Shown here piece after piece: positions 10,618-60,651 of a stretch of DNA of 64,000 nucleotides. The position numbers and the translations under genes are program-made. This stretch comes from Eledone cirrhosa. Lineage: Eukaryota. The notes below the pieces were generated by a model. That model saw only the letters and a program-made list of their open reading frames with translations, was not told where the DNA came from and ran no database searches. Location of the stretch: contig OZ024753.1 in NCBI GenBank assembly GCA_964016885.1, positions 42,842,001 through 42,906,000 of the forward strand. The letters are read 5' to 3'. The stretch's first letter is position 1; every line of letters starts with the position of its first letter.

Positions 10618-10676
10618 GCTGTTATATATATTTCTGTGATAACCGTTATGCAACAGTTATGACCTCATCAGACAGC
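10618..10676 (-). ncRNA. Minimal type I hammerhead ribozyme-like motif
   Basis: Minus strand: GCUGU-CUGAUGA-[ggucauaacuguu gcau aacgguuaucaca]-GAAA-UAUAUA-UA-ACAGC, then AAUAAA; 5-bp stem I; the basal stem II position is a G-A mismatch. Confidence 0.75.
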
Positions 10677-11608
10677 TAGAATTTGAACAGAAAAACATAA
10701 AGATGGAATAAAGCTTACTTCTATTATTTTGATTCCTTGATATGCTCTGGACTGAATTTTGGTGTTACTTTCTCAGATAGTGTTATGAATATTATGTTAT
10801 ACAACAATATATATGTATATATATATATATATATATATATATATATATATATATATATATATATATATATATATATATTGAAACCTTCATTGTTTTCTTT
10901 CCAAAATGTGTTTGTTGTATAACATATATCCATAATGGTATCTCAGATTTCATGGAATTTAATGGTGCAATTGTGTATTGTAGATGTTTAATATTGTATT
11001 GTTTATATTCATCTATATATGTATGTATATATGTATGTGTCTGTATGGATGTATGTATGTATATATGTATGTATTTATGTATGTGTGTATGTCTATATAT
11101 ATGTGTGTGCATGTGCATGTCTATAACTTTTAATTTTATTTCAAAATAGCTTTATTTATCTATTTATCTATCTATGAATATATATATATATATATATATA
11201 TATATATATTGATATGTGAGCAGCATATACACAAGTTGTGTATACTTAGTAAAATACATTCACTTCATATATTTGTCATTTACGGATCATTTATTCTGTT
11301 AAAAAGTAGTGGAGATATTTATATATTGTAATTTGCTTCTGGTTACACAAGTAAAAATTGATATTTATTTTAAATCTATGGAAATGTGTGTAAAAAAAGA
11401 CAACATAATGATAAAAATAGCTGAGAGAAGAGTATCTATTAATGGCTTATATAATTGTTAAAATATAATTTATACATTTGAATATTTCATGAACAGAAAA
11501 AAATAATTAGAATAGAACTGATGATGTTGGTAGGGAGTGGTGGTGGTTGTGTCTGATACAATAAAACATACTATATATATATATATATATATATATATGT
11601 GTGTGTGT

Positions 11609-14508
11609 ATGACGAGTGGGTAGATAAAGTAATCTCAGTGTACAGGGTAAATGCAAGAATCATTAAACTCAGACTAGTCCTGAATAAAACAATTACCACA
11701 ATAATATCAGCTTACGCACCCCAATCGGGGTTGCCAGACGAACTTAAGGATAGATTTTACGAGTCCCTAATGCACACTACCGCTCTAACAAACGACAATG
11801 ACTTACTAATCATCGCAGGAGATTTTAACGGACACGTAGGTAAACACTGTGACGGCTTCAATAGATTCCATGGAGGCCACGGGGTTGGCACAAGAAATGA
11901 AGCAGGATTCAGACTTCTAGAATTCTGCGACACCAATGACATGTCGATATGTAATACAAACTTCAAAAAACCTGACAACCACCTGATCACCTATAGATCA
12001 GGGTAGCATTCTAGTCAGATAGATTTTATCCTCATCAGAGGACGTGACAGATGGACAGTCGTAAACACAAAAGCCTACCCTAGTGAGGAATGTACATCCC
12101 AACATAGCTTAGTTGTCAGCGACCTCACGGTCAGAACTAGATGAACCTGGAAACAGAGGCCAACCTGGAGAAGAAAGATCTGGAAGCTGAAAGACCCCTC
12201 AGCCAGTAACAGATTTTAAAATATTTTACTCAACGCCTACGACAGTAAAGAAGAACAGATAGAGACATTCAATGTAGAAGAGCACTGGGAGTTCCTAAAA
12301 AATAACTTACTAGAGGCGACAGATGAGGTCTGTGGCTGGAGTAAGACCACAAGCAGGAGGAGAGTGACTTGGTGGTGGAACAATAAGGGAGATGAGGCAG
12401 TTAAGGCCAAGAGACAGGCATGGAAAGAATGGAAGAATGGGGGGAGCAGGGTACATTACATAGAGACTAAGAGGGAAGCTAAGCGACAAGTATACTTAGC
12501 TAGGAAGGAAGCAGAGGATAGAAAATTCACGCATATTTTGCAACGTGAGGACCAGAAACAGGAGGTGTTCAAGATTGCGAGGCAGTGTGTCAGAGAAAAT
12601 TGTGATGTCATTGGAGAGAAGTGTATCCGGAATGATAAAGGTGAGCTTGCCCTCACAAGTGCTGAGAAGAAAGATACATGGAAGAGCCATTATGATAGAT
12701 TACTAAATGAAGAGAATGCATGGGAAGAAGAGACCCTACCCCAAGTAGAGGGGCCAGCAGTACAAGTTAGCAGCAGCATAGTAAGTAAGGCAATCAAAGA
12801 TATGAAGATGGGGAAGGCAACCGGTCCATCGGGTATAGCTGCCGAGATGCTGAAGGCATCTGGGTCTGTAGGTCACACTATAACCACATGTATTGTTAAC
12901 CAGGTAATACTAGAAGGTGTCATACCAAAAGATTGGTGCAGTAGCATCATTGTCAACTGCTACAAAGGTAAAGGTGATGCACTAGATAGAGGAAACTATA
13001 GACGTATAAAGCTGATGGACCAGGTCATGAAAGTAACAGAAAGAGTTATAGCACAGTTGATTAGGGAACGGGTGAAACAAGATGAGATGCAATTTGGGTT
13101 TGTACCAGGAAGAGGCACCACTGATGCCCTCTTCCTTGTGAGACAGTTACAGTAAAAGTACCTAGCTAAAAGTACGCCACTCTACCTGGCATTCGTCGAT
13201 CTCGAGAAAGCCTTTGACAGAGTTCCACGTGCTGTAATCTGGTGGGCTCTTAGAAAACTAGGAGTAGATGAATGGCTTGTGAAAGCTGTACAAGCCATGT
13301 ATAGGGGAGCAGTCAGCAAAGTTAGGATTAGCAATGAGTATAGCGAGGAATTTAGCGTACAGGTTGGTGTCCACCAGGGCTCTGTTCTTAGCCCTCTCCT
13401 GTTCATCATAGTCCTGCAGGCAATAGCGGAGGAGTTTAAGACCGGATGCCCATGGGAACTCCTGTATGCTGATGACCTCGCACTTATAGCTGAATCTATG
13501 GTAGAACTAGAGAAGAAATTCCAAACTTGGAAGCAGGGACTAGAAAGAAAGGGTCTCAAAGTCAACATGACAAAGACTAAGGTCCTTGTAAGTAGACGAG
13601 AAAACAGAACCCAGATCCCCTCAGGGAAATGGCCTTGCTCAGTATGCAGGAAAGGTGTAGGTAGGAACTCCATTCTCTGCCCCAAATGCAAACAATGGGT
13701 ACACAAGAGATGTAGCGGGATCTCAGGAAGCTTAATTAAGAATGTAGGCTTCACATGCAGCAGCTGTGTTGGGGCAGCAAACAGCCACAGGAAACAAGTA
13801 CCACCAATCTCTGGGAGGGCTCTGTAGAAACAGTAGACAGCTTCTGCTACCTAGGTGACCGAATTAGCAGCGGAGGTGGTTGTTCAGAAAGTACAATAAC
13901 TAGGGTAAGAACGGGATGGAAGAAGTTCAGGGAACTACTGCCACTGCTAGCTGCAAAACGCTTCTCCCTCAAAATGAAAGGCAGACTGTATGATGCGTAT
14001 GAAGGATGACAGCTGCATAAAAAGGTGCAGAGCACTAGAAGTCAATGGAAACCGCGAAGTGGGGAGACCCAAGAAGACCTGGGATGAGGTGATAAAAGCT
14101 GTCCTTACCCAATTACACCTCTCAAAGGCGATGACACATGACCGTGACCTCTGGCGTCACGCAGTAATACAGAGTACCGACCTCCCATGGGTACAAGCTG
14201 AAGCATATAGACCATATGCCCCCACACCCTCCCACTGCAAGGTGGTCGTGGAGGTGCCACGGCTAAAAAGCACCCAGCCCACACTGTAAAGTGGACGTGT
14301 AGGCGCCACGAAAAAGCACCCAGCACTCACTGTAAATGAGGTTGGTGTTAGGAAGGGCATCTAGCTGTAGAAATCGAGCCAAAATCAGTTCCTGTATGAG
14401 CAAGGCATGGTCAGCCGACCAGACACTGCCCACAACAGGACAACCCGTCTAACCCATGCTAGCGTGGAAGAACGGATGTAAAACGATGATGATCATGGCG
14501 ATGATGAT
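11609..14508 (+). mobile_element. Decayed, 5'-truncated RTE-type LINE (family A): APE endonuclease, reverse transcriptase, PHD-like finger, 3'UTR, (GAT)n tail
   Basis: SAYAPQ, GDFNGHVG and SQIDFIL (APE); NYRRIKL, QFGFVPGRGTTDA, FVDLEKAFD, GVHQGSVLSPLLF and LLYADD (RT); in-frame stops (e.g. 12004, 13153), a frameshift near 13800 and an internal deletion near 13995. Confidence 0.95.
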
Positions 14509-15012
14509 ATTTATGTGTATATATATATATATATATATATATATATATATATATATATTGATTTAATCTATATTTATTCTCTATCAAAATATTTAAATTT
14601 CAGTATAATATTTGGAACATTTAGCAATTGCATTATTCAGTAAAATTAAATATTATGAAAGTCGTCGAAGTATCCTCGGCTTATTGATTCAGTTACAAGA
14701 TCAATGAGAGATCAGTGCCTGATCAATGTATTTGGACAATAGGATATCATTTGTTTCAAAGTTATTTTTGCATTCATTGGTTTCAGATTTGTCTGGCTAA
14801 ATAAAAAGTCTGCTTCCAGCCAGAAAGTTCATCAAGCTGGTACTTATTCCAGTTTCATTGGTGTGAAGTGACAGAGAGTACATGACTTCCCCTGGATAGG
14901 ACACCAGTCCATCATAGGGTTAAAGTCTGTCTTGAGCCGGGAAGCTCATCAGGGCAGTGATTATCCTGATTTTTCTGGTGTTAATCGACTAAGAGTATAA
15001 GACTCCCTACAC

Positions 15013-15800
15013 ACACATGTGGCATATACAGATGTGACATCGACACAGATGTGACATAGACAGATGTGACATAGACACATGTGGCATATACAGATGTGAC
15101 ATAGACACATGTGGCATATACACAGATGTGACAAACACAGATGTGGCATATACAGATGTGACATAGGCAGAGATGTGACATAGGCAGAGATGTGACATAG
15201 GCAGAGATGTGACATAGGCAGAGATGTGACATAGGCAGAGATGTGACATAGGCAGAGATGTGACATAGACAGATGTGGCATATACAGATGTGACATAGAC
15301 AGATGTGGCATACACAGATGTGGCATACACAGATGTGGCATACACAGATGTGACATACACAGATGTGACATCGACACAGATGTGACATCGACATAGATGT
15401 GACATATGCAGATGTGACATATACAGATGTGGCATATACAGATGTGACATATACAGATGTGACATAGACACAGCTGTGACATAGACAGATGTGACATATA
15501 CAGATGTGACATATACAGATGTGACATAGACACAGCTGTGACATATACAGATGTGACAAACACAGATCTGACAAACACAGATGAGACATAGACACAGATG
15601 TGACATAGACAGATGTGACAGAGACAGCTGTGACATAGACAGCTGTGACATAGAGAGCTGTGACATAGACAGCTGTGACATAGACAGCTGTGACATAGAG
15701 AGATGTGACATAGAGATATGTGACATAGACAGATGTGACATAGACAGATGTGACATACACATATGAAACAAACACAGATGTAACATACACAGATGTGACC
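15013..15800. repeat. Variable 16-18-bp minisatellite (acagatgtgacatag-like)
   Basis: About 45 degenerate units; source of the Cys/His-rich pseudo-ORFs. Confidence 0.9.
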
Positions 15801-60215: not shown

Positions 60216-60256
60216 TCGAGCTGAAGATCCGCATAAGGTGAAACAATTGTTCTCGG
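60216..60256 (+). ncRNA. Minimal hammerhead-like motif with weak stem II
   Basis: UCGAG-CUGAAGA-uCC gcauaa GGu-GAAA-CAAUUG-UU-CUCGG; palindromic stem III. Confidence 0.65.
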
Positions 60257-60314
60257 TATGGTGAACTAACTGTTGTGTTACTACTTATATATATATATAT
60301 ATATATATATATAT

Positions 60315-60520
60315 ATAGGAACAAGTAAGACCCCGACGGCTGAGCTCAAGCCGTTTCGACGGCTAATTCTGTACTCAATTCAGTACAGAATTAGCCGTCG
60401 AAACGGCTTGAGCTCAGCCGTCGGGGTCTTACTTGTTCCTATTACCCACTCTACTACCCTAAGTATTGAGTACTTTGGTGCGTTATGGTCCACCTGGTTC
60501 CTTACCACATTTCCTTCGTT
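60315..60520. mobile_element. Fold-back element family copy 4 (hairpin 60315-60442)
   Basis: About 61-bp arms with loop caattc; (TA)n on both sides. Confidence 0.8.
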
Positions 60521-60598
60521 ATATATATATATATATATATATATATAAAATAAAGTTAAATAAAAAGTCAAATATTTAAAATTTAGCTTCGTTTATTC

Positions 60599-60651
60599 CT
60601 GCTATATATATTTCGGTGACAGCCATCTTTGGCTGTGACCTCTTCAGGCAG
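60599..60651 (-). ncRNA. Minimal type I hammerhead ribozyme-like motif (best formed)
   Basis: Minus strand: CUGC-CUGAAGA-GGUCACAGCC aaagau GGCUGUCACC-GAAA-UAUAUA-UA-GCAG, then AAUAAA; 9 of 10 stem II pairs form, G-C at the base. Confidence 0.8.

Follow-up and report, generated by a model that had tools for sequence, protein, structure and literature searches.

The stretch of DNA analysed here (the window) covers 64 kb of the 3.0-Gb genome of Eledone cirrhosa (assembly GCA_964016885.1, contig OZ024753.1, positions 42,842,001 to 42,906,000, forward strand). It contains part of a plus-strand gene for a receptor protein tyrosine phosphatase, whose Ig, FN3 and PTPRU-type FN3 exons were found from 6948 to 46785. 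A candidate phosphatase-domain exon, judged by eye and without a Pfam match, probably lies 30 kb beyond the window end. On this basis the interval 10618-60651 is intronic, as had been proposed in an initial annotation. The subject of this study is the set of hammerhead-ribozyme motifs listed there at eight places in the introns (10618, 21004, 22582/23154, 34204, 39176, 39553, 60216 and 60599), with degenerate candidates at 2855 and 25751, and the Penelope-like elements (PLEs) to which they were related.

Type I hammerheads were searched for with a descriptor consisting of the CUGANGA core, stem II, GAAA, stem III, UH and a stem I of at least 4 bp. Seven matches were obtained in the window (cores 10671-, 21073-, 22725-, 23164+, 39236-, 60221+ and 60647-), the positions listed above being the outer ends of stem I. 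Dinucleotide shuffles (n = 200, 500-nt blocks) gave a mean of 0.075 motifs and a maximum of 1. A perfect 6-nt palindrome formed stem III in six of the seven matches and in none from the shuffles, although the descriptor did not demand one. AAUAAA stood directly beyond the cleavage site in at least four window copies, where three had been claimed. Four listed sites (34204, 39553, 25751 and 2855) represent decayed members of families with an intact-core majority: the first has a mismatch in stem I and a 7-nt, non-palindromic stem III (CCUUUGG), the next two are minimal hammerheads (GAAA-CG-UU) with mutated cores, and in the last the core is short of one base. The majority sequence keeps an intact core in all eight families. 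In an Rfam scan of the window no hammerhead was present among the best 150 of 589 matches, which were TA-repeat artefacts. The core heptamer alone was not enriched (27 in the window, 24 in shuffles), as would be expected if the motifs were chance matches in AT-rich repetitive DNA. That explanation is refuted by the excess of the full motif, here and in the genome sample described below, and by the membership of every site in a family of hundreds to thousands of copies; practically no weight is left to it.

The genome was sampled in 59 evenly spaced 10-kb stretches at chosen round positions (589.8 kb), using a slightly stricter descriptor. Forty-eight motifs were found (three of them one site counted thrice), 30 of which were palindromic, and six shuffles gave 0, 2, 1, 0, 0 and 1. 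With the same descriptor the window held 6 motifs and 130 kb of neighbouring DNA 14. Extrapolation gives about 2.4 × 10⁵ intact-core motifs genome-wide (Poisson 1.8-3.2 × 10⁵, an interval that is too narrow because copies pair). The one motif per 6-7 kb of the initial annotation was accepted beside intact-core densities of 1 per 9-11 kb in the window and 1 per 12 kb in the sample. The sampled motifs lay within 200 nt upstream of a (TA) or (CA) run in 41 of 48 cases, compared with 29% for random points. Pooled motifs from the sample, the window and the neighbouring DNA (68 in all) fell into 24 sequence clusters with at least 10 distinct stem III palindromes. It was also considered whether the host keeps intronic ribozymes to regulate the phosphatase pre-mRNA, at least eight motifs being present in one gene and two intact cores (23164 and 60221) lying on its sense strand. 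However, the motifs are as dense in the window as in the genome background (6 in 64 kb here, 48 in 590 kb in the sample), and each copy either shows 96-98% identity to a young mobile family or has decayed as neutral copies do, so that this explanation is regarded as highly improbable.

The sites were assigned to families, for which the following counts are lower bounds on genome candidates: A (60599), at least 1149; B (10618), at least 1682; B2 (21004), at least 2463; C (22582/23154), at least 589; D (34204), at least 311; E (39176), at least 610; F (39553), at least 2812; G (60216), at least 1317; and H (2855), at least 3536. Exact 18-19-mers numbered 11,989 for E, 1,965 for A, 1,858 for B2 and 361 for G (those with C at the first pattern place not counted). 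The claim of several abundant families is thereby upheld. Family B, with candidates at 82-89% identity, is an older relative of family A.

Four window insertions (2596-2800, 32553-32660, 54812-54931 and 60314-60529) belong to X, another family linked to Hydra, which is represented by 27,139 exact 19-mers in the genome. In its full copies (L255, L178) the hammerhead core is of the U3-A8 type and stem III has 5 bp; its short copies begin within stem II and keep half the ribozyme, and were therefore missed by a CUGANGA search. Two further U3-A8-core hammerheads, of other families, were seen in L233 and L246. The commonest intact-core cluster (12 of the 68 motifs, for example in L079 and L269; stem I UUUUAU/AUAAAA, stem III UAUAUA or UAUGUA) had no representative among the window matches.

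Penelope coding sequence was not found within the 64-kb window by tblastn or profile search, in agreement with the initial annotation, which had seen no reverse transcriptase (RT) or GIY-YIG sequence there. Elsewhere in the genome four of the families were joined to open reading frames (ORFs) of this kind. In family A, 3 of 30 loci ran 1.6 kb upstream into an endonuclease (EN) domain of the GIY-YIG type, which matched Pfam at the cut-off and, used as a probe, gave at least 1144 candidates; longer copies reach the RT (7 of 7 examined were broken), and the unit exceeds 3.5 kb. The unit of family C is 6.6 kb, with copies 99-100% identical, and in L142 it contains an open 813-aa ORF with a telomerase-like RT followed by GIY-YIG. 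The protein carries the motifs RWR (37), DKT (115), CNCRNKANC (673; CxCx5C), CRLC (771; CxxC) and CNH (799; CxH). Its predicted structure (predicted local distance difference test score, pLDDT, 85) placed telomerase RT (TERT) first among fold matches; no match was obtained from Pfam or from phmmer against PDB, and a profile gave a weak retron RT match. Family E tails without a following TA run share a continuation, which in 22 of 30 such loci enters a Hydra ORF about 46% identical to that of C, with RWT and DKT motifs and a unit of about 3.9 kb as judged from spacings. In family G the ORF ends about 190 nt before the core in 17 of 25 upstream-extended loci and CxCx5C, CxxC and CxH are present; judged by eye, this is the family closest to the published Hydra-1_Obim. 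For family B, an A-like EN lay on the same strand 1.1-1.6 kb upstream in 3 of 20 upstream-extended loci, and the family probably belongs to the Hydra clade.

The features by which this clade is recognised were largely present. A single ORF encodes a telomerase-like RT with a C-terminal GIY-YIG domain (C by fold, A by Pfam, E and G by similarity); an RWK-like motif, DKT, a CxCx5C linker and CxxC and CxH around the EN end were found (in C, in A and, as given above, in part in E and G), without a CX2-5CxxC finger; the hammerhead lies at the 3' end and the insertions in (TA)n. The insertion structure is that of PLEs with an endonuclease, namely a partial tandem forming pseudo-long terminal repeats (pLTRs), an inverted truncated arm and a one-sided tail. 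The units are larger (C 6.6 kb, E about 3.9 kb, A above 3.5 kb) than the clade's tendency of less than 3 kb, which is not diagnostic. As far as sequence comparison can tell, four of the eight listed insertions (22582/23154, 39176, 60216 and 60599) are thus short pieces of coding Hydra-clade elements, and a fifth (10618) is probably another. A Penelope origin, and the search for autonomous partners that had been recommended, were both borne out by these parents. Hydra matches beside F and G in L178, L187, L209, L212 and L224 were set aside as opposite-strand neighbours or other families. A Neptune-like PLE was seen at L065:5265-8315 (-), with an open frame of 1017 aa (898 aa when counted from its first Met), a CX4CxxC finger and, following the frame, a hammerhead with a non-palindromic GAAC loop.

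Family B2 was different. Its tail was followed by shared continuing sequence in 34 of 35 rows; in five of six loci a body of 1.2-1.3 kb, with 76-90% identity, led on to the next B2 hammerhead, and two same-strand copies were found 1,352 bp apart. The body gave no Hydra profile match and no open frame longer than 140 aa. By these features B2 is a non-autonomous Penelope-type element of 1.35 kb, of which the window copy is a 5'-truncated example, and it likely borrows a Hydra-type enzyme. Searches with tail continuations gave 4 matches for H and 49 rows for D, without shared continuation in either, and none among the first 100 of 1261 rows for F. A D triple on C27 proved to be a 5.2-kb host tandem, and a Hydra EN upstream of H in L396 was part of a different family that ends in a TA run of its own.

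The initial annotation had described the families as non-autonomous and retrozyme-like. The lack of coding capacity holds for B2, the only one shown to be non-coding, and fails for A, C, E and G and likely for B, so that the absence of an autonomous element is not a general property of the sites. The corresponding alternative, in which the motifs mark self-propagating, non-autonomous retrozymes spreading via circular RNAs, gains from the partial-tandem unit of B2, from D, F and H, for which no parent was found, and from a relationship between frog retrozymes and pLTRs given in the available part of one report (10.64898/2026.07.22.740005). An F locus (L203:1350-1650) with two direct copies about 150 nt apart was the sole retrozyme-like pair, in 1 of 25 F loci. 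Against this, there is ORF linkage in four families and likely in B, the unit of B2 measures 1.35 kb and not 170-400 nt, and the short copies of family E form no clade (see below). Among the 68 motifs there was no 170-400-nt head-to-tail array, and no same-family direct pair within 1.5 kb save one internally repeated site, as opposed to 10 same-family head-to-head pairs. The retrozyme explanation is considered improbable.

Arm ends were classified by hand from the bases upstream of an anchor, using the first 100 matches in genome order from unselected pattern lists. For family E, 46 arms stopped at the A of TC/ATATG (the slash marks the boundary), 48 continued into the parental 3' untranslated region (UTR), 5 were short and 1 was unclear. 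The base preceding the fixed start was G in 15, T in 9, A in 2 and C in 20 (15 of the latter being perfect fold-backs). In family G, 30 arms stopped at the A of CC/AGTC (preceded by G 10, A 1, T 1 and C 18), 57 were parent-like and 13 were short or unclear, and in family A 35 stopped at TC/ATATG, 61 continued and 4 were short. Start clusters were similar in selected loci of B, D and H. In B2, which served as a control, a fixed start was looked for and was absent, 98 of 100 arms passing through the matching place. Where the preceding base differed from that of the parent, an extra G was found in 15 of 26 E arms (p = 8 × 10⁻⁵) and in 10 of 12 G arms (p = 1 × 10⁻⁵), with 22% expected; the combined p over the families tested is 2 × 10⁻⁷ for these hand counts. 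Measured from its start, family E has the cleavage site at 124 nt, the pLTR end at 166, the tail end at 256 and the ATG at 336. In a tree of 57 E arms, the 40 short and 17 long or ORF-linked ones were interleaved (15 changes, compared with 14.3 when shuffled) and a single short clade was rejected (approximately unbiased test, p = 0.0002), from which it follows that short copies arose repeatedly from coding subfamilies.

In A, B, E, G and X the fixed start coincides with the A of a word resembling an initiator, and less sharply so in D and H. The initiator consensus is TCAKTY, which the fixed sites resemble. An internal promoter with an initiator has been described for Penelope (PMC2377424, in the part available) and an initiator-like word for rotifer pLTRs (PMC3846280, likewise), and for L1 an untemplated G has been interpreted as a copied cap (PMC9341517, in part). 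The fixed start, together with the extra G in two of the four families tested, suggests that the short copies are run-off copies of a capped RNA leader. A literature search on fixed 5' starts of short copies yielded nothing beyond Craig et al., 2021 (PMC8557442).

Tandem source copies have the fixed start, hammerhead, pLTR end, tail, 5' UTR and ORF in that order. The order pLTR, tail, 5' UTR and ATG was seen in L139 and L248 for family C, and identifies the window tail at 22386-22519 as the family's own 5' UTR. The insertions are located in (TA)n and often consist of two arms arranged head-to-head, only one of which has a tail. In vitro, according to the available text on a lizard Poseidon protein, cutting and extension take place on both strands, RT begins internally at two sites that delimit the tail, and the hammerhead can be dispensed with and is assisted by protein (PMC11167929). 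By analogy, the GIY-YIG domain would cut both strands of a TA tract and RT would start internally, one start per strand, at the pLTR end and the tail end. The same repeat would be present at both ends of a tandem transcript. An enzyme on the downstream repeat would yield a variably truncated 3' end, and one on the upstream repeat would run off at the capped RNA 5' end after 75-260 nt, so that the resulting short copy has a fixed start and, in many cases, an additional G. The window copies of E and G would fit the latter class, and A and the long arm of C the former. The copies span the cleavage site; their templates were thus uncleaved.

Overall, we read the motifs as type I hammerhead folds in the pLTRs of PLEs, four of the eight listed insertions being short pieces of coding Hydra-clade elements, a fifth likely so and one belonging to a non-coding 1.35-kb family, with short copies produced by run-off as described, and assign to this reading a probability of about 0.8. 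Several points weigh against it. For A, B and G none of the ORFs seen was intact, and a parent was not found for D (34204), F (39553/25751) or H (2855). The extra G was not enriched in A (4/16, p = 0.48) or X (4/7, p = 0.22), the counting was manual, and arms that form a pair are not independent. In A, B and E the fixed site starts with ATAT, which also matches the TA target and favours fold-back joins. The ATAT starts and the lack of an extra-G excess in A and X would fit an alternative in which the fixed 5' ends are hot spots for RT stalling or template switching where ATAT is shared as a microhomology with the TA target or with the second arm, and in which every copy derives from the downstream repeat; 15 of the 46 E arms are perfect fold-backs at such a site. 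On the other hand, G stops at AGTC, which has no TA match, and still shows the extra G; in five families the start coincides with the A of such an initiator-like word; and B2 is read through even though its corresponding place also has a hammerhead and an AT-rich word. This alternative is held to be the less probable one, although it deserves more weight than any other that was considered.

A last point against the reading concerns the ribozymes. The G10.1-C11.1 pair, called highly conserved in the accessible text of PMC4209133, is present in A and B and, after a bulged base, in F and H, and is absent from C, D, E and G; stem II of G has only 2 bp, so that some of these hammerheads may cleave poorly. 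In family C (window copies at 22592-22725 and 23164-23297) stem II is 115 nt long and folds as a single long hairpin (-40 kcal/mol). In the computed folds the stem III strands formed no hairpin alone and paired between molecules at -2 to -10 kcal/mol, in line with a palindrome suited to dimer folding. The ribozyme is accordingly modelled as nearly inactive as a monomer, and predicted to cut only as a dimer via the palindrome or with protein help; dimer cleavage of such hammerheads is treated in the parts available of PMC4209133 and of a review (PMC6765202). In the leader, such a cut would separate the cap from the ORF. The intronic copies are most likely inert debris. A more speculative possibility, which we regard as doubtful, is that a large share of the hammerheads are full copies of capped 5' leaders and not broken 3' ends, arising because RT would start just downstream of the promoter. 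The stem III palindromes, of which each family has its own, would then act as family-specific RNA-RNA sensors that decap an mRNA upon contact with another of its family, and leader copies could dampen the parent in trans.

The elements are of a known kind, the ends of Hydra-clade PLEs together with one non-autonomous partner, and hammerhead-bearing Hydra elements have already been published from octopus, with the palindromic hammerhead of Hydra-1_Obim (Octopus bimaculoides) listed in a supplement (PMC8557442). Insofar as the available portions of that source describe it, the clade shares with our elements the single RT and C-terminal GIY-YIG ORF with RWx, DKT, CxCx5C, CxxC and CxH, the (TA)n targets, the palindromic-stem-III hammerhead in the 3' end, the inverted 5'-truncated arm and the one-sided tail. 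They differ in that units here reach about 3.9 kb (E) and 6.6 kb (C) rather than less than 3 kb, tails 90-134 nt rather than 30-40, and many families thousands to tens of thousands of copies each; a fixed 5' start of short copies is not described in those portions. The minimal PLE hammerheads of PMC4209133 are likewise type I, have a palindrome in stem III and mostly occur singly in truncated PLEs, with opposite-strand pairs 100-700 bp apart and a U3-A8 core variant; as far as that text goes, they number 2,000-9,000 per genome, whereas about 2.4 × 10⁵ are estimated here, and here several families lack G10.1-C11.1 and stem II is as long as 115 nt. Anolis Poseidon (PMC11167929, in part) shares a tail that is the stretch between the two element ends and continues to the ORF side in tandems, and an uncleaved RNA as template; it belongs to a different clade and was studied with defined RNAs in vitro, and cap-terminated short genomic copies are not reported in the text available. 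Metazoan non-LTR retrozymes, as described in the available parts of PMC7229834 and 10.64898/2026.07.22.740005, share type I hammerheads, a PLE connection and very high copy number, but are 170-400-nt head-to-tail repeats expressed as circles, whereas here the copies are single or head-to-head and mostly of coding elements.

What goes beyond the published record is the scale, the length of the units and tails, and the reading of short copies as leader run-offs. The approximately quarter million hammerheads exceed any printed count found, the highest being 126,247 motifs in axolotl (PMC7229834, in its available part), and a literature search on hammerheads in octopus and other cephalopods turned up no genome-wide cephalopod count. 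An octopus repeat annotation includes 31 recently active Penelope-like families (PMC13282606, in part). Most hammerheads in this genome are, on our reading, transposon debris and neither gene regulators nor retrozymes. The role of the hammerhead in PLEs and the origin of short mirrored insertions are open questions in the field; the genome supplies young intact Hydra-clade elements in which the positions of start, cleavage, end and tail are mapped, together with a non-coding partner, and both questions are testable with one purified protein.

The features of the window are collected in Table 1.

Table 1. Host-gene exons and hammerhead-bearing insertions in the window (cleavage sites are predicted).
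Feature	Position	Strand	Details
Host-gene exons	Ig 6948; FN3 25373, 28665, 43092; PTPRU-type FN3 46462	+	
Family H pLTR and tail	2811..3047	+	core 2833-2839, short one base; family-majority stem III CGCGCG
Family B pLTR fragment	10564..10775	-	hammerhead 10618-10676, core 10665-10671; stem I GCUGU/ACAGC; stem III UAUAUA
Family B cleavage site	after 10623	-	
Family B2 3' end	20954..21098	-	hammerhead 21004-21078, core 21067-21073; cleavage after 21009
Family C long arm	22386..23104	-	134-nt tail 22386-22519, pLTR end 22520, core 22719-22725; stem III CGAUCG; cleavage after 22592; 98% identical to L139
Family C short arm	23105..23369	+	head-to-head with long arm, tail-less; core 23164-23170; cleavage after 23297
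Family F-type minimal hammerhead, decayed	25672..25786	+	core 25754-25760
Family D head-to-head pair	34105..34395	both	minus arm 34105-34285 with tail, core 34259-34265
Family D plus arm	34286-34395	+	GAAA box decayed
Family E pLTR copy	39140..39305	-	starts at fixed initiator-like site 39305; core 39230-39236; stem III UGCGCA; cleavage after 39182
Family E inverted arm	39315..39422	+	pLTR end and ~90-nt tail
Family F minimal hammerhead, no tail	39532..39671	+	core 39557-39563, C3 to U; GAAA-CG-UU
Family G	60178..60285	+	piece of tail, inverted, from 60178; additional G at 60212; copy of the pLTR 60213-60285
Family G hammerhead	core 60221-60227	+	stem III CAAUUG; cleavage after 60251
Family A	60548..60860	-	inverted tail end 60838-60860; 5'-truncated 3' end 60548-60836
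Family A hammerhead	core 60641-60647	-	stem III UAUAUA; cleavage after 60603

Some further repeats were recorded. A CUGAUGA-containing repeat, present in three copies (14952-, 17312+ and 31221-), has no matching GAAA box or stem I partner and hence is not a hammerhead. An RTE-like long interspersed nuclear element (LINE) copy at 11557-14290 (+) gave endonuclease, RT and PHD-finger matches and is interrupted by stops. A lone tail-like piece of another family lies at 39465-39521 (+), its final 13 bases matching the end of the family E tail. The otherwise unrelated tails of A, B, B2, D, E, G, H and X have in common a GAG-NN-CTC word (mostly GAGTGCTC), of which B2 carries a second copy just beyond its tail end.

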